A stretch of 64,000 nt of DNA from a phage. Position numbers and translations under genes: made by a program. The stretch's first letter is position 1; each line of letters opens with the position of its first letter. The stretch lies in sequence record PX104380.1, one strand, 5' to 3'. Positions 24,828-62,340 of the stretch are shown piece after piece. The notes beneath the pieces are model-generated. The model worked only from the letters and a program-made list of their open reading frames with translations. It ran no database searches and was not told the origin of the DNA.

Positions 24828-24835
24828 TATTTATA
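24828..24835 (-). promoter_or_regulatory. Late promoter TATAAATA for soc
   Basis: exact T4 late consensus on - strand about 30 nt upstream of soc ATG. Confidence 0.7.
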
Positions 24836-25667
24836 ATCCATTTTCAAATCTCTTTATCATGTTTATATAATTTTCGTCAGGATAACCTAGGCTAACTGCT
24901 AGTTTTCTAAAATTGACATATTTAGGTTTGTTGTTATTAATCCATAATTCTCTAAGCTCTTTTTCATAATTCCATTTAAGTTGATTTCTGCGTGCAGTTT
25001 TGCTTAAAGTTTTTCCTTTAGCTTTTAAAGCTTTTTCAGATGACTGTTTTAATTTTTGAATATTTAAAACTTCTTCTATAGATAAATTATTTTCCTTTGA
25101 ATATCTTATGCAAAAATCTTTTACTGCGGCTATTAGGCAATTTTTGTGAGTACCTAAAATTTCTGGGTTATTTTCTTCAACTAAAATTCCCCAATATCTT
25201 CGGTAGCGAGGCATATCTCTTGAAATCCAGTCATTATACCAAAAATCAAAGTTGGAATACATGAAAGATTTTCTTTTACGAAGAGTATCTTGGTTTATCC
25301 ATTGCTCACGTTTATCAGCCCATAACTTAATAGTAAAGTCTTTTTCTGAGTCAGAAAGCTTCTTAAATTGCGAGCTATTTACTGAGGTCATTCTCTGGAA
25401 TGCATTCAGCAATCCAAATCTTCCAGTTGAACATAAGAGATAGTGAACATATATGTGTTGATATATTGGGAGATATACTCTATTCCAAGGATGTATTTTA
25501 AAATCACTATACTCAGGAAATGCGCATTTAGGAAGTATATGATGGGCTTCTGTTTTAGATTTGATGTGAGTGTTTAACTTATATTTATCTATAATTTTTA
25601 AGTACTCATCTAAAAGTTCCCATTGCGGGAACTTTTCTTTAAGAGCAGATTTGAAATTAATATCCAT
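24831..25667 (-). CDS. HNH-family homing endonuclease-like protein (Mob-like)
   Basis: about 278 aa; HNH-like core EAHHILPKCAFPEY...HPWNRVYLPIYQHIYVH; sits between 56 and soc. Confidence 0.65.
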   Translation of the reverse strand: MDINFKSALKEKFPQWELLDEYLKIIDKYKLNTHIKSKTEAHHILPKCAFPEYSDFKIHPWNRVYLPIYQHIYVHYLLCSTGRFGLLNAFQRMTSVNSSQFKKLSDSEKDFTIKLWADKREQWINQDTLRKRKSFMYSNFDFWYNDWISRDMPRYRRYWGILVEENNPEILGTHKNCLIAAVKDFCIRYSKENNLSIEEVLNIQKLKQSSEKALKAKGKTLSKTARRNQLKWNYEKELRELWINNNKPKYVNFRKLAVSLGYPDENYINMIKRFENGL

Positions 25668-26175
25668 TATCTTGACGTTCAAAATTATGCTTGTTCTTCA
25701 GATAATAAAGTTTAAAGATTTCTTCAGCAGTAAGGCCGAGACCTTGGAACATGTTCAGAACGAAATGAAGAATATCAATCATTTCGAATTTAATTTCCAA
25801 CTGGTCTTGTGGAGACAAATCAGTAATCAGAGTTTCACGACGTTCACCATGCTGCGACTTCCAAGGCTTCCATACAGCAGATGCATCTTTTTCACCATTG
25901 CTCATACCACCAAGAGAAGTCAGAAGTTCACGGAATTCATCATCAATGTAATCTTTCTGATTACGCAGCCAATCGACAACTTCACCTGCAGTAGCCAAAT
26001 CATCAGGATGACGGTTATATTCAGGTTTATCTTTAGCTAAACGAACCTGCAGAGATTTCTGCATATCAAGCATAACTTGCAGTGGGTCTTTTTCATCACC
26101 GAGAATATCCCAGTATTCATTTTGAGCTTTATCAGCACCAGCGATCAGATGACTACATTCGTTGAAATGTGGCAT
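25657..26175 (-). CDS. 56: dCTP pyrophosphatase gp56 (MazG-like)
   Basis: 172 aa; MPHFNECSHLIAGADKAQNEYWDILGDEKDPLQVMLDMQ matches remembered T4 gp56. Confidence 0.92.
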   Translation of the reverse strand: MPHFNECSHLIAGADKAQNEYWDILGDEKDPLQVMLDMQKSLQVRLAKDKPEYNRHPDDLATAGEVVDWLRNQKDYIDDEFRELLTSLGGMSNGEKDASAVWKPWKSQHGERRETLITDLSPQDQLEIKFEMIDILHFVLNMFQGLGLTAEEIFKLYYLKNKHNFERQDNGY

Positions 26176-30573: not shown

Positions 30574-30936
30574 TTAAAAGAATTTAAATTTTTTCTTTGA
30601 CCTTTTATTAAATGCATCTTGTAGTTGCATTGTAATACATTTTTCTACATGAGGAGCTAACTCAGCTTTTCTTTCTTGGTCAAGAACAGCAAAGTCCATT
30701 ACGACTTTTCCATCAACCCAATCTAATTTTGTCACATACACAATGTGTGTAGAACCATCTTCTAGTTTAATGACAATCTCCTGGATAACATTTTCCATGG
30801 CAGATTTAATTATCTTAAGAGATTCATTAAAAAGACGTTCTTTTCTTTCTTCTTCCCCCTCCGAAGAGGGGGATTCATCGATAATTTCTAGATCTAAATC
30901 TAAATCATCTTTATTCATTAAATTCTTCCATATCAC
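30574..30936 (-). CDS. 40: gp40-like protein (by position between uvsX and 41)
   Basis: 120-aa ORF; contains an intragenic UUCG hairpin at 30855-30872. Confidence 0.55.
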   Translation of the reverse strand: MIWKNLMNKDDLDLDLEIIDESPSSEGEEERKERLFNESLKIIKSAMENVIQEIVIKLEDGSTHIVYVTKLDWVDGKVVMDFAVLDQERKAELAPHVEKCITMQLQDAFNKRSKKKFKFF

Positions 30937-32092
30937 TTAACTGCTCGAGGTCAGTTTCTAAATCAGCAGCTGATTTACTTTTACTTTCTGAAGATTTAAA
31001 TTTTTCAACTTTTGAGTTAATTAATTCATCAACTTCAGCTTCAACAATTTCATTACTATCAATAGCACCTAACTGATAAGCACGTTTAATAGCATCTCGG
31101 AATGGTTGATGCTTAAATAAAGGACCCCAGAATGTAGTGCAGTTGGTATCTTTTGCACGCCAAGATTTTTCTTCGCGAATCATCTCACCGGTTTCTTCAT
31201 CAAGAAATTCACGAGCATACCAACCATTTTTAGGTTTTACCACGAATCCTAATTCTAGAGCCATATCTAACAATCCAGAATAAGGATCAATACCACCGTC
31301 AAATTTAACATCAATAAAGAATTTACTTTTTTCTTTAACGGTACGAGATTTTTCTACATTTAGAACAAATTGATACCCCTGAAGATCAGAGCCATCTTTA
31401 ATCTGACGTTTACCGATAATGAATACGGTATCAGCCGAATACATTACGCCTGTACCACCTGTCATCACGGTTTTACTAAACATTTCAATTGTTTCAATTG
31501 TATGGTTAACCGCAACACATGGAATATTTTTAATGCTAAAGTAAGGAGTAACAATACGGAATAATGACTTCAGTGATTTAGCACGAGTCATATCTGCCAC
31601 AGATTTTTCATTCAAGGCATCTTCCGTTTCTTTCTTAGAAGCCATATTACCAATTGAGTCGATGAATACAATAACCTTTTCACCACGCTCAATAGCTTCA
31701 AGCTGATTCACCATATCAATTTTCAGCTGTTCAACTGACTGAATTGGCGTATGAATTACTCGTTCCGGGTCAACTCCCATGGATCGCAAATAAGCTGGAG
31801 TAATACCAAATTCGCTATCATAGAATAGACAAACCGCGTCAGGATATTTGTTCAAATATGCCGCAACCATAGTCAAAGACATATTTGATTTAAAGTGTTT
31901 AGAAGGTCCTGCGAAAATAGTTAAACCAGACTGCATACCGCCATCAATCGCACCAGAAATAGCAATATTAAGCATTGGGATTTTTGTACGAATTACATCC
32001 TTTTCATTAAAAAATTTAGATGTAGTCAGTTCAGCAGTCATTTTAGAAGTGGAAGCTTTAATCAAACGGGATTTTAAATCTGCAATAGACAT
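30911..32092 (-). CDS. uvsX: Recombinase UvsX (RecA/Rad51 family)
   Basis: 393 aa; Walker A GPSKHFKS; N-terminus MSIADLKSRLIKAS. Confidence 0.95.
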   Translation of the reverse strand: MSIADLKSRLIKASTSKMTAELTTSKFFNEKDVIRTKIPMLNIAISGAIDGGMQSGLTIFAGPSKHFKSNMSLTMVAAYLNKYPDAVCLFYDSEFGITPAYLRSMGVDPERVIHTPIQSVEQLKIDMVNQLEAIERGEKVIVFIDSIGNMASKKETEDALNEKSVADMTRAKSLKSLFRIVTPYFSIKNIPCVAVNHTIETIEMFSKTVMTGGTGVMYSADTVFIIGKRQIKDGSDLQGYQFVLNVEKSRTVKEKSKFFIDVKFDGGIDPYSGLLDMALELGFVVKPKNGWYAREFLDEETGEMIREEKSWRAKDTNCTTFWGPLFKHQPFRDAIKRAYQLGAIDSNEIVEAEVDELINSKVEKFKSSESKSKSAADLETDLEQLSDMEEFNE

Positions 32093-32169
32093 TCATTTTT
32101 TCCATAGGCATCATTATATTTTCCTCACTGGTTAAAGATAAAGTAATTATAACACAATAAATTTAGGCA

Positions 32170-33018
32170 TTAATCAACTGCTATCGGATGAATAGCATTA
32201 AACTTATGAAATGCTTCTGATTTTTCTTTACGCGAAACACACATGCGAAGAACCTTTAATGGCTCGTCTTCTTCACCCAACGATTTTCGTTTTTCAATAT
32301 TAGAAGTTTTCCAACGAGCTTGCTCTGGAAACTCTCTATTGATTTGCTCAAGCGCTCTATTATGTTTAGAATTACTACGAATTGAACTGCACCCGCCAGG
32401 AGCTTGTGCTTTTCCAGATACAACCAGATATTTGAACAAGGCCAAATGCGGATAACCTTGATTAATTAAATTGAGAAATGCATACATATCTTCGCACAAA
32501 TCAATTTTTCCATACCCAATTTGTTCTGTCGTAAGTTTTCCAAGGTCATACCATGTATTCGTGAATCCATACGAATTTTCACGATAATTACCCCAAGATG
32601 AAGTAATTTTAAAAATAGGTAGACGAGCATGGCCATGATAATACCCACAATCCATGGCATCCTCAACATATTGAATCAATTCATAGAACTGTTCACGGGT
32701 TAATTGATTGACTTTATCCACACAACGACGATCATCTCTTTTTCGCATTGAACTCATACGAATAGTAGTATCATCGTCAATCATCCAGATTCGTTGACCT
32801 GCATACATATCAGTAATTGCTTTACGAGTACCGGCAATTCCGTTTACATCATCAGGAATAGTTATAATTTTAGCTCTAGACCCATAAGCGTCATGATAAG
32901 CTTTTTCTTCATGTTCACGTACTACGATATGAGGTTCATAATCAGTCGGAAACATATCAAGGGCAGAAACTGCCCCTACACGTTGATAGCTCGGAATTAC
33001 GAATTGAATCATTTCCAC
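32170..33018 (-). CDS. Putative DNA glycosyltransferase (GT-A-like, DxD motif) at the beta-gt locus
   Basis: 282 aa with IWMIDDDTTI; between uvsX and 42; unlike T4 beta-gt (351 aa). Confidence 0.5.
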   Translation of the reverse strand: MEMIQFVIPSYQRVGAVSALDMFPTDYEPHIVVREHEEKAYHDAYGSRAKIITIPDDVNGIAGTRKAITDMYAGQRIWMIDDDTTIRMSSMRKRDDRRCVDKVNQLTREQFYELIQYVEDAMDCGYYHGHARLPIFKITSSWGNYRENSYGFTNTWYDLGKLTTEQIGYGKIDLCEDMYAFLNLINQGYPHLALFKYLVVSGKAQAPGGCSSIRSNSKHNRALEQINREFPEQARWKTSNIEKRKSLGEEDEPLKVLRMCVSRKEKSEAFHKFNAIHPIAVD

Positions 33019-33749
33019 TCACCGTTATAATCTTTTTTCACAATATGAGTTTCGCCAGTATTCCACCAATGATCAACCAAGTAAAAATGACGAGAATATA
33101 CATGAAGACTTCCGACATTCCATATAATAGAACCTGCTTTATATTGCCGCGATGGGTCGCCTGCATTCAAATCAGATACTAATTTATCTAGTACGTATTT
33201 TTGCCAAGCATAATCATTACGATAGCCTGCCCAGCAATCATTGCTTCTCATGCTAACAACCGCATTGACTTTCTTATCACGAATCAGGTACTGTACTGTA
33301 TTAGTACACATGAAATCTGACATACCATCTTTATTGTAGTCAAATTGCATGGATGGACGAGTATAAATCATGATACCACGTCGAGAATCAGGATTTTGAC
33401 CAAGTTCAGCTAAACACATATCATACTGGGCATAGTTATCTTCTGACCAGATAGCCCAACCATAATTTGAGTTAATTTCACCTTTAGAAGATGCTACCTG
33501 CTGCCAAATCTTTGGTGTTTCACCTGGAATATCTTTAACAAACAAGCTCTTAGATTTATACCATTCAAGTTCACGTTGAATGTATTCATCATTAAGAGCG
33601 CCAAAAATAAACGGTTCATCTGCTACAAATGATGCGCCAATAATTTCAATAGTTTTAACGCCAGTTTTATCAACTACGAAATCTTTTTCTTTTAATGCAA
33701 GCCCCAAATGAAGACGGATTTCTTCAACTGTCATAGAGTCACTAATCAT
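33009..33749 (-). CDS. 42: dCMP hydroxymethylase gp42
   Basis: 246 aa; thymidylate-synthase-like fold; T4 gp42 length and position. Confidence 0.92.
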   Translation of the reverse strand: MISDSMTVEEIRLHLGLALKEKDFVVDKTGVKTIEIIGASFVADEPFIFGALNDEYIQRELEWYKSKSLFVKDIPGETPKIWQQVASSKGEINSNYGWAIWSEDNYAQYDMCLAELGQNPDSRRGIMIYTRPSMQFDYNKDGMSDFMCTNTVQYLIRDKKVNAVVSMRSNDCWAGYRNDYAWQKYVLDKLVSDLNAGDPSRQYKAGSIIWNVGSLHVYSRHFYLVDHWWNTGETHIVKKDYNGEWK

Positions 33750-33902
33750 TTAAACCTCAATTGATACATTCATATTTAACTTGTAACAGTAATAAACCCC
33801 AACCTAAAATAATAGTTGGAATCATAAGAGGAACCGTTACACTATAGTATATACTTATTATAATCATCAAGATTAAAAGCAACACTGCTATAATTTTGCT
33901 TT

Positions 33903-34154
33903 TCATTCCTTCTCTCTGATGATAATTACCTGATTTGGTTGTGCAGACTTTTTAGTTTCACCCGCAATTGACCAAATAAATGTAATAAACCAACCAATAA
34001 TTGACCAGTTAAACAGTAAAGATGTGAAAAAGATTCCTACTGTCGATTTTGACCCACGCATCAAGGCGATAAACCATGGAAGCATGTATATAATAATAGC
34101 CAACACACCTGAAACTAAAACCATAAAAATTGAACCTGCTACTAAAGTTTCCAT
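33903..34154 (-). CDS. imm: Immunity protein Imm (superinfection exclusion)
   Basis: 83 aa, METLVAGSIFMVLVSGVLAIIIYMLPWFIALMRG matches remembered T4 Imm. Confidence 0.9.
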   Translation of the reverse strand: METLVAGSIFMVLVSGVLAIIIYMLPWFIALMRGSKSTVGIFFTSLLFNWSIIGWFITFIWSIAGETKKSAQPNQVIIIREKE

Positions 34155-39913: not shown

Positions 39914-40600
39914 TTAAAAATCGTGGGTAGAATCAGCTTCAAGAGCTACTACATAATTCGCGTGTTCACCTTCAAATTTAGCAGCACCTTGTTTACCTTT
40001 TGCCCAGAGCAGAAGTTTATAATTTCCTGGTTGCATTTTCATATTTGCCATATTGATAATGAAATTAAATGTATTTTCACCATCATAATCACCAAGAGTC
40101 AAAGAATATTTAACACGTGTCAGAGCAGAATCTTCTACTTTATTAAAACCGTTAATTACGATTTTACCTTCTTTTACCGTGATAGCAATTGTATCAATTT
40201 GCAGACCACGAGATACACGCAACAGTTGTTGAAGGTCTTCAGCTTTAATTTCAGTAACAACAGATGCTACCGGGAATGGAATTGGTTTATTAGGAGCAAC
40301 TACTGTACTCGGATCGGCTGCTGGCCAAAAAATTGTTGAACGGGCATCAGCAATTTTAATATTTCCATCTTCTGACTGGGAAATTTCTGCATCATCATTA
40401 ACTAGAGACAGAATACCGAGAAAACCGTTCAAATCGTAAATTGCTACATCAAAATCAATAGTGTCAGAAATATTTGCTTCCGCATAAGTTGTACCATTAA
40501 CTGCGCGAGTCATAATAAATTGACCGGATTTAAGCATAATACCGGAGTTAATAGTAGCGAAATTTTTCAAAATATTCAGTGTGTCTTTAGATAATTTCAT
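39914..40600 (-). CDS. 45: Sliding clamp gp45
   Basis: 228 aa; [64 protein letters not shown]. Confidence 0.95.
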   Translation of the reverse strand: MKLSKDTLNILKNFATINSGIMLKSGQFIMTRAVNGTTYAEANISDTIDFDVAIYDLNGFLGILSLVNDDAEISQSEDGNIKIADARSTIFWPAADPSTVVAPNKPIPFPVASVVTEIKAEDLQQLLRVSRGLQIDTIAITVKEGKIVINGFNKVEDSALTRVKYSLTLGDYDGENTFNFIINMANMKMQPGNYKLLLWAKGKQGAAKFEGEHANYVVALEADSTHDF

Positions 40601-41484
40601 TTCAATTTCCTATTTACATAATAGTTAGACCAGGACCGTACAGCACCCTGATAAGATTCGTCGTTAAACCCATTAGCTACTGCAATTTTACGAAATTTAT
40701 TATAACTCGGTTTTCCGTAAGCATGCCATAAAGATTTTAATTCATCTTCATGTTCAATCCAAGTTCCTCTAGCTTTAGATTTTCTAAATTTTGATTTGAA
40801 TTCCGGTGAATTATTTCTAACAGTTGCTTGAATTGAAGCTCTCTGTCTTCTTTCAGCATTATTCCATAACTCTTTTTGAGATTTAGAAATTTTTGATTTT
40901 ACACTTTCTGAATTCATTATATCACTAAACTTTTTAGCATAACTGCAATCAAGATATTTCAATTTCATCTTATTTGAAAGTTTAAGCTTTTTCTCATCGG
41001 TCCAGTGATTCTTCATTGAATTAGATATTTTGTATTTTACGTCAGAACTATGTTTGTAACCTTTACGAATACCAACATAATCGGGCGTAATTTCAGATTG
41101 CGAAAGCTTTACAATTTTTCCAGTTAAAACATTTTTATATGTTCCATATCCTTTAGCGCCAATTAAAGTATTTTCATCTGCGTATGCTTTATTAAAATAT
41201 TTTATATTACTTTTTGCTTTAACTTTTAATTGAAAAAATCTTTCCAATTTTCTTGGATCTAATATAGTTTCAGCTAAAATTTTGACGGTATATTTAGTGG
41301 TTTTAATAAGCTCAAAATATTCATCGCTATAACTCGATGACACGCTTCCAGTATAAATCTTTCCAGCTGAATCAATTATATTTGTTCCATCGAAAATTGC
41401 GTCAATTTTCGAACCTATATAATAACATGGAAAAATATTTTTAGCTTCCCGCTCTGGAAAGCTAATAAGATATACTAAATTCAT
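40597..41484 (-). CDS. GIY-YIG-like (Seg-type) homing endonuclease candidate between 45 and rpbA
   Basis: 295 aa; N-terminal VYLISF...YYIGSK resembles GIY-YIG; C-terminal module shared with two other endonuclease-like ORFs. Confidence 0.5.
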
Positions 41485-50729: not shown

Positions 50730-51200
50730 TTAATCATGTGTCCACACCCCATCGGTATTTGACCAAAGTCGCTGATTATCTGATCCTCGCCACAGCTTTT
50801 TAGTCGGAAGATTTTTCTCATACTTCCCATCAATAATAACATCAACATATTTAAGCATTTCTAGTTGTTTAATATCTTCAAACTTATATCCTGTCCACAA
50901 CCAAATGCTTTTATTGGGATAAAGATTTTTAATAGTTTGAACCACAGAGTGAATCACGTCTCTGTTATCAGGATAAAGAGGGTCACCTCCGGTTATAGTT
51001 AATCCTTCTATATAATCATTATTCAAACATTCAATCAATTGTTCTAGTGTTTCACCAGTGAATGGAATACCATTTCTAGCATTCCATGTTGATTTATTAT
51101 AACACCCTTCGCATTTATGCAAACAACCTGTAACGAAAAGAACGACCCTGCATCCAGGGCCATTCACAAAGCAGCACGGGTATATTCTGTCATAATTCAT
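50730..51200 (-). CDS. nrdG: Anaerobic ribonucleotide reductase activase NrdG (radical SAM)
   Basis: 156 aa from ATG 51200; CxxxCxxC motif CLHKCEGCYNK. Confidence 0.88.
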   Translation of the reverse strand: MNYDRIYPCCFVNGPGCRVVLFVTGCLHKCEGCYNKSTWNARNGIPFTGETLEQLIECLNNDYIEGLTITGGDPLYPDNRDVIHSVVQTIKNLYPNKSIWLWTGYKFEDIKQLEMLKYVDVIIDGKYEKNLPTKKLWRGSDNQRLWSNTDGVWTHD

Positions 51201-52027
51201 AATAATATCCAATTTTTCCAAGCTTCATCAGTAGAATTACAGCGTTTTAGTATAAGATGTCTAGAAACTTTTATGGCATTTGAGCACTTTTTAATTGAAT
51301 CATATTTAATACCGTCAACTGAAACGGTTTTGCTCGTTGGAGAAATTTTTCCATACATTGGATTTTTTGAACCAACTTGAAGTCCTTTTAAAGCTTTTGA
51401 AAGCTTTTGTCTAGATTCCAATGACATGGGAGAATTCTTTTTACCTTCAATAATTCGCTTGCGATGAAGTTCGCGTTCTTCTTCGCTCAAAGAATTGTAA
51501 TATTTTTTAACACCGTTTGATATAGATAATTTATCTTTCTCAGACCGCTCTCCAACTAATTTACTTCTAACATCTTTTCGCTTCATAGCTATGCTTACAG
51601 CTTTATTTAAATTTGCTTGATGCTCTGGCGTACGTTTATATTTCTTTAAAGCACGTGAAATAGCTATTTTAGTTTCTACTGTTTTCTTTTTACCTTTATT
51701 TGCTAAACTATTTTTGTGGCGATGTTCAAGTGTCTGTTCATAAGCAGTTCCACCTTTTCCACCGGGTTTAATATTATATGTATTTTCTTTTAGACAATAC
51801 TCTTCGGTTACAAGTTCAGCTTCTTTATCATACATTTGTTTTTCATTATCAAAAACATGTAAAATTTCTTTATTAAAATTTTTTCTACCATATTTTAATA
51901 AAGCGGCACGAATCAATGTTCCTGATCCCATATAACCGTCATTTATGTTATCGGTGCTATGCGCACCGATATATTCCTTTGAATTAATTATATTTGTTAT
52001 TTTATAAATTATATAATACCTATGCAT
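51197..52027 (-). CDS. GIY-YIG homing endonuclease (I-TevI/Seg-like), free-standing between nrdD and nrdG
   Basis: 276 aa; N-terminal YYIIYKITNIINSKEYIGAHS...YMGSG; basic NUMOD-like repeats; overlaps nrdD stop by 8 nt and nrdG start. Confidence 0.72.
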   Translation of the reverse strand: MHRYYIIYKITNIINSKEYIGAHSTDNINDGYMGSGTLIRAALLKYGRKNFNKEILHVFDNEKQMYDKEAELVTEEYCLKENTYNIKPGGKGGTAYEQTLEHRHKNSLANKGKKKTVETKIAISRALKKYKRTPEHQANLNKAVSIAMKRKDVRSKLVGERSEKDKLSISNGVKKYYNSLSEEERELHRKRIIEGKKNSPMSLESRQKLSKALKGLQVGSKNPMYGKISPTSKTVSVDGIKYDSIKKCSNAIKVSRHLILKRCNSTDEAWKNWILL

Positions 52028-61620: not shown

Positions 61621-62340
61621 TTAGGATTCTTCTAAATGTCTTTTCTGAAAAGTTGATACCATACTACGATACGGTTCATTTGGATACCCGTGTTTTATAG
61701 CTTCCTTTGTAAATTTTCTCCATCCATATTTAGTTTCTTTCCAAAGCTCGAATAATTCATCTTCATACTGCCATATAGTTAAATGAGAACGCTTTGCAGC
61801 TTTAATTCCATTAATATGCTTTTCTTTTACTACAGGATTGCTTAGTTTCTTTTTAATAATATTACTAACTTTTCTAACAAAAACTGGGTCCTTATATCGT
61901 TGCGAAGTTTTTATTGAAGTGTTTAATTTAGCTTCCGGTGTGGATGTGACCTCTTTCATCTTTTTCTTCATATGCTGTATATGATTAGGATTTTTCCATA
62001 AATTTATAGAATGCTTTTTGCATTTTATCCTAGTTTCATCTGCAACCTTTCCTCCTTCACCTCCGTATGACAGGTTAACACAGTTTTTTCCATATTTCAA
62101 TTTACCTGCCATGATATATAATATTTCAGCTTGTACCATTTTATCATAATTATCAAAAACTTCTAAAACCGTTTTTGATAATATGTGGTCATTTGACACT
62201 TTTACACGTTCTATATAATTTCCACTACCAACATACGAATCATTGATGTTATTAGTTATATGTCGACCATAATAGTATTTCTTAATACCTGTCTTTAAAT
62301 TTAATATTTCAGTTTTATAGATAGTAAAATATTTTTTCAT
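61621..62340 (-). CDS. GIY-YIG (Seg-like) homing endonuclease candidate
   Basis: 239 aa; N-terminal YFTIYKTEILN...YYYGRH...YVGSG; C-terminal module shared with ORFs at 24831 and 40597. Confidence 0.6.
   Translation of the reverse strand: MKKYFTIYKTEILNLKTGIKKYYYGRHITNNINDSYVGSGNYIERVKVSNDHILSKTVLEVFDNYDKMVQAEILYIMAGKLKYGKNCVNLSYGGEGGKVADETRIKCKKHSINLWKNPNHIQHMKKKMKEVTSTPEAKLNTSIKTSQRYKDPVFVRKVSNIIKKKLSNPVVKEKHINGIKAAKRSHLTIWQYEDELFELWKETKYGWRKFTKEAIKHGYPNEPYRSMVSTFQKRHLEES

Follow-up and report, generated by a model that had tools for sequence, protein, structure and literature searches.

Phages T2 and T6 lack the beta-glucosyltransferase (beta-gt) of T4, and in their DNA a second glucose is beta-1,6-linked onto alpha-glucosyl-5-hydroxymethylcytosine (5-hydroxymethylcytosine, 5-hmC or hmC), giving gentiobiosyl-hmC (PMC13216743, PMC11078745). 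When the gene for the second transferase (ba-gt) was deleted from T6, gentiobiosyl-hmC was lost, alpha-glucosyl-hmC alone remained among the glucosylated forms (~75%), and sensitivity to two enzymes, the Brig1 glycosylase and the BapA glucosidase, was altered (PMC11078745). In Solly and EH2 from the Durham collection, high-performance liquid chromatography with mass spectrometry (HPLC/MS) found ~1/3 5-hydroxymethyldeoxycytidine (5-hmdC) and ~2/3 alpha-gentiobiosyl-methyldeoxycytidine (alpha-gentiobiosyl-mdC), with trace alpha-glucosyl-mdC and no beta-glucosyl-mdC (PMC13390438). Here we analyzed a stretch of 64,000 nucleotides from the phage record PX104380.1 (hereafter the window), in which the slot between gene 42 and uvsX is occupied by a minus-strand gene that almost certainly encodes a T2/T6-type beta-glucosyl-HMC-alpha-glucosyltransferase (ba-gt, also called ggt or TAGT). 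The gene, known since the 1990s, was reportedly cloned and named by Winkler and Ruger in 1993, and we take its T2/T6-type product to be EC 2.4.1.28. Its function, fold class and synteny with T4 beta-gt are all already published, the synteny in PMC13216743 and, as an explicit statement, in PMC13390438, and the gene is an ordinary one, intact in hundreds of sequenced T4-like phages.

The window protein was compared with its counterparts in phages of known DNA chemistry. It shares 277 of 280 residues with the T2 protein annotated as b-gt (99%) and 276 of 280 with the T6 RefSeq protein YP_010067197.1 (~98.6%). It departs from the T2 enzyme at three residues (R11, H40 and P251 in the window; H, Y and S in T2) and from the T6 enzyme by three substitutions, with no difference of kind from either. 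The copy in phage vB-Eco-KMB42 is 100% identical, and the EH2, Solly and RB14 proteins, identical to each other, differ from it by one residue (H40 in the window versus Y40). The likeness to the T2/T6 enzymes extends to the 280-amino-acid (aa) length, the gene 42-uvsX slot, the ATGA coupling to gene 42, the DDD motif and the alpha-glucosyltransferase (alpha-gt) partner. Profile searches agreed: PHROG 842 ("beta-glucosyl-HMC-alpha-glucosyltransferase") matched at 3e-89 over profile positions 3-269 of 270, and PF20691 (TET-associated glycosyltransferase, TAGT) scored 41.3 bits over positions 2-205 of 205 (curated cut-off 27.5); an NCBIfam scan gave no model matching the protein. A preliminary description of the locus, made from the letters alone, had proposed a T2/T6-type sugar pattern in which a second transferase acts alongside alpha-glucosylation, and both the identity to the T6 and T2 enzymes and the PF20691 score above cut-off bear this out.

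The same description had placed a 282-aa protein in the uvsX-42 slot. Its open reading frame (ORF), 32170..33018 on the minus strand, was confirmed in the ORF list and is no chance ORF, because it recurs in 475 phage records over the full gene length, at 90-99% nucleotide identity and in the same gene 42-uvsX slot. These records are nearly all Tequatrovirus, from Escherichia, Shigella, Yersinia, Salmonella and Citrobacter hosts; those that name the product usually call it beta-glucosyl-HMC-alpha-glucosyltransferase, beta-alpha-glucosyltransferase or glucosyl transferase. The length did not stand, since 282 aa are reached only by counting from the GTG at 33018. The ATG at 33012, two codons downstream, forms an ATGA with the TGA that ends gene 42, and GGTGAG stands a few bases upstream of it. 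Because the T2, EH2, Solly and RB14 copies are all annotated as 843 nucleotides (nt), equivalent to a start at this ATG, a 280-aa product is the likelier one.

The surroundings of the gene fit the family, with a deoxycytidine monophosphate (dCMP) hydroxymethylase gene adjoining and an alpha-gt gene in the same genome. Local gene order is as in T2 and T6 (43, small ORFs, imm.1, imm, 42, ba-gt, uvsX, 40, 41), the 25-kb stretch around ba-gt is 96-97% identical to many T2/T6-like phages, and the spacer between ba-gt and uvsX (32093..32169, 77 nt) has the same length in T2. A sequence search of the whole window found no paralogue of ba-gt. The T4-like alpha-gt named in the preliminary description was recovered as a PF11440 protein, whose counterpart in phage Geo is 91% identical.

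This context bears on whether the protein might be a TAGT-family transferase acting on another sugar or base, that is, with a donor or acceptor other than that of the T2/T6 enzyme. Family members do occur in phages without alpha-gt and beta-gt; solitary TAGT homologues were found in 288/753 phage genomes, and more than one acceptor specificity has been raised as a possibility (PMC13216743). The window copy, however, is 98.6-100% identical to enzymes of phages with measured DNA chemistry and co-occurs with alpha-gt, and we consider a deviant specificity highly improbable.

To place the enzyme structurally, we relied on homologues. A search of 5.8 billion proteins returned only 11 clusters, their BLASTP identities spanning 98% to 28%, which makes for a shallow alignment and leaves some regions of the model uncertain. 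Ten full-length homologues, down to 32% identity, were aligned (alignment A1). The DxD-like motif IWMIDDDTTI, pointed out in the preliminary description, spans residues 75-84 when counted from the ATG, and its D79, D80 and D81 are invariant in A1, as are I6, P7, S8, Y9 and R11 among other columns. A single-sequence AlphaFold2 model was unusable, with a predicted local distance difference test score (pLDDT) of 39.5, and was replaced by a model built on A1 (pLDDT 70.4, predicted template modelling score 0.72). The latter model adopts a GT-A glycosyltransferase fold with clear but moderate similarity to GT2 folds, is confident in the N-terminal nucleotide-binding half (pLDDT ~84-95, residues 1-80) and places the IPSYxR region on strand E3-7.

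Sequence searches of the PDB with the single window protein gave chance matches only (E>1). With the A1 profile, the only match was 9jma, a GT2 beta-1,3-glucosyltransferase, over residues 2-83 at a non-significant E=0.25; in this alignment IPSYxR falls on IIPTYNR and DDD on LDDDD, a pointer to GT2 that would not be significant by itself. As predicted from the model, the enzyme would share with GT2-family GT-A enzymes (TarP 6h1j, TarS, AvpGT 9jma, BcsA) a GT-A Rossmann-like nucleotide-sugar domain, an N-terminal IPxYxR-like strand motif (IPTYNR in GT2), a DxD motif and inverting beta-transfer. A model of the T6 TAGT has likewise been assigned a GT-A fold, and TAGT is placed as a sister group to GT2 rather than inside it (PMC13216743). 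A glycosyltransferase fold, left to be checked in the preliminary description, is thus supported by the Pfam profile match to PF20691 and, independently, by the predicted GT-A model.

The T4 beta-gt occupies the corresponding position in T4, where the gene 42-uvsX interval holds the 351-aa beta-gt together with the homing endonuclease gene segA. In the window, the slot holds ba-gt only and lacks the segA that T4 has between beta-gt and uvsX. No T4-type 351-aa beta-gt was found in the slot, in agreement with the preliminary description, and a tblastn search of the whole window with the T4 protein brought up none either (best E=1.4). The two proteins share a genomic position and the decoration of 5-hmC DNA with sugar from uridine diphosphate (UDP)-glucose, but differ in sequence, in fold (GT-B for T4 beta-gt, PMC13216743; predicted GT-A for the window enzyme) and in acceptor, which is the hydroxymethyl group of hmC for T4 beta-gt and would be the glucose of alpha-glucosyl-hmC for the window enzyme.

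These differences speak to the proposal that the gene encodes a direct 5-hmC beta-glucosyltransferase, a functional analogue of T4 beta-gt, as its shared slot and GenBank labels such as "putative beta-glucosyltransferase" and "b-gt" (e.g. Sf22, teqskov) might suggest. By blastp, no resemblance to T4 beta-gt could be detected in the window protein (best E=2.2), and in the Pfam scan PF20691 was the only family listed, the T4 beta-gt family PF09198 not being reported. Beyond the difference in fold, phages carrying an enzyme one residue away contain no beta-glucosyl-hmC by HPLC/MS (PMC13390438), and deletion of ba-gt from T6 removes the second glucose alone while ~75% alpha-glucosyl-hmC is kept (PMC11078745). 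Direct beta-transfer to hmC is largely refuted by the dissimilarity to T4 beta-gt, the fold and the measured chemistry of relatives, and we give it next to no credence.

Under the T2/T6-type assignment, a pathway can be proposed. Its chemistry and genetic requirement are taken from published work on T6 and the Durham phages, while the present analysis contributes the T2/T6 identity, family, fold, motif conservation and synteny, and shows that alpha-gt is present and T4 beta-gt absent. Gene 42 would make 5-hydroxymethyl-dCMP, the root of the pathway, for incorporation into phage DNA, and alpha-gt would add an alpha-linked glucose to 5-hmC in the DNA, forming the acceptor of ba-gt. The ba-gt product, predicted to be a small, single-domain, soluble GT-A transferase related to GT2, would then use UDP-glucose to attach a second glucose, in beta linkage, at the 6-OH of the first, yielding alpha-gentiobiosyl-hmC. 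In GT-A enzymes, a DxD-type motif holds a divalent metal and the diphosphate of the UDP-sugar. D79-D80-D81 would bind both in the window enzyme, with a presumed dependence on metal. Since alpha-linked UDP-glucose would give a beta-linked product, the mechanism is expected to be inverting, as in GT2.

By analogy with its measured relatives, the window phage probably has a T6/Solly-like sugar pattern, with ~2/3 gentiobiosyl-hmC, ~1/3 bare hmC and no beta-glucosyl-hmC. The expected sugar coat would comprise hmC, alpha-glucosyl-hmC and alpha-gentiobiosyl-hmC, again without beta-glucosyl-hmC. Such a coat predicts the fate of the phage against modification-dependent defences and is useful for annotation and host-range prediction: gentiobiosyl-hmC DNA resists Brig1 in vitro and the BapA glucosidase, while GmrSD/BrxU-type enzymes still cut it (PMC13216743, PMC11078745).

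Nothing contradicts the T2/T6-type assignment, but several points limit it and the sugar pattern drawn from it. No solved structure exists for the TAGT family, the best PDB sequence match being the GT2 one at E=0.25. In the A1-based model, residues 126-150, 202-211 and 261-280 are poorly predicted, and the acceptor (DNA) site is thus not defined. The gentiobiosyl-hmC share is ~5% in T2, ~40% in Geo and ~70% in Solly and T6 (T6 ~72%) (PMC13390438, PMC11078745); because the mono-/di-glucosyl ratio varies this widely among phages with 97-99% identical enzymes, the ratio in the window phage cannot be read from sequence with confidence. Finally, residue 40, a variable column in A1, is H in the window enzyme and Y in the measured relatives.

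The spread in ratio also raises the question of whether ba-gt is inactive or weakly active in the window phage, leaving its DNA mostly mono-alpha-glucosylated as in T2. The T2 gene is 99% identical yet is accompanied by only ~5% gentiobiosyl-hmC, and two public T6 records carry apparent ba-gt lesions. The window copy, by contrast, is intact and keeps all A1-invariant residues, including R11 and DDD, as well as P251, which is near-invariant; it is at R11 and P251 that T2 is changed, and gentiobiosylation is high in EH2 and Solly, the closest relatives with measured DNA chemistry (PMC13390438). We therefore regard a weak allele as unlikely and retain an active T2/T6-type enzyme as the preferred assignment.

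Comparison of the T-even copies showed that the T2 enzyme (LC348380.1, 4007..4849) differs from the EH2/Solly/RB14 enzyme by R11H and P251S only, at invariant and near-invariant columns of A1, respectively. One possibility, which we put forward tentatively and consider rather doubtful, is that small ba-gt substitutions set the mono-/di-glucosyl ratio of T-even DNA, the T2 (~5%) versus T6 (~72%) difference reflecting a hypomorphic T2 allele. Speculatively, R11H/P251S could underlie the low di-glucosylation of T2; if so, the window allele, with R11 and P251, would predict a T6-like pattern. None of this suggests a novel activity for the window gene itself. Phage Geo shows an intermediate 1:2:2 pattern (PMC13390438), and its enzyme has eight differences from that of the window, including R95K; effects of the Geo enzyme and of its context are not separable, because its alpha-gt is also only 91% identical.

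The two T6 records differ in their lesions. In MH550421.1 (4138..4980) there is an in-frame TAA at ba-gt codon 10, and the annotated protein starts at an internal Met and has 261 aa, while in NC_054907.1 (201..1040; YP_010067197.1, 279 aa) one codon of the invariant DDD is lost. Both could be stock mutations or sequencing errors. The gene is intact in the window, T2, EH2, Solly, RB14 and Geo, and neither T6 lesion is found in the window copy.

The features of the locus, together with four homing-endonuclease-like ORFs in the window, are listed in the table.

Table. Positions of the ba-gt gene, its motifs, partner and neighbouring genes, and homing-endonuclease-like ORFs in the window
Feature	Coordinates	Strand	Evidence
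ba-gt (ggt, TAGT), beta-glucosyl-HMC-alpha-glucosyltransferase (almost certain), 280 aa (likelier start)	32170..33012	-	T2 identity, PHROG 842, PF20691, GT-A model
D79-D80-D81 codons (gac gat gat), DxD-type motif	32770..32778	-	Invariant in A1; aligned with LDDDD of 9jma
I6-P7-S8-Y9-Q10-R11 codons, N-terminal IPSYxR motif, first beta strand of nucleotide-binding domain	32980..32997	-	A1, 9jma alignment, model
Gene 42, dCMP hydroxymethylase, 246 aa, directly upstream of ba-gt	33009..33749	-	Synteny with T2 gp42; weak thymidylate-synthase family matches
alpha-gt, DNA alpha-glucosyltransferase, 400 aa	45447..46649	-	PF11440, E=5.7e-236
uvsX, RecA-like, 393 aa, downstream neighbour bounding the slot	30911..32092	-	ORF list, T2 comparison
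Homing-endonuclease-like ORF	24831..25682	-	PHROG 655, 4.5e-33
Homing-endonuclease-like ORF	40597..41484	-	PHROG 655, 3e-32
Homing-endonuclease-like ORF	51197..52027	-	NUMOD3, I-TevI DNA-binding, SegE GIY-YIG; 43% identical to T4 segA over 144 residues
Homing-endonuclease-like ORF	61621..62340	-	PHROG 314, 1.8e-30

Among the homing-endonuclease-like ORFs, the one at 40597..41484 lies between rpbA and gene 45, a place at which phage Geo has no gene. A promoter and terminator scan around ba-gt gave counts not above shuffled expectation. A GC-rich stem-loop, GGGGCAGTTTCTGCCC, followed by a T-rich stretch, was seen at 32958..32978 on the minus strand, inside the ba-gt ORF and ~35 nt past its start. 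It may be a chance occurrence, the regional count of terminator-like elements being no higher than in shuffles. The record LR215724.1 annotates a terminator somewhere under the ba-gt match. Between imm and gene 42, a 49-aa hydrophobic ORF (33757..33906, minus strand) matched PHROG 3610 (5.7e-26), a conserved family of unknown function; left unannotated in the T2 record LC348380.1, this ORF is annotated in phage Geo.
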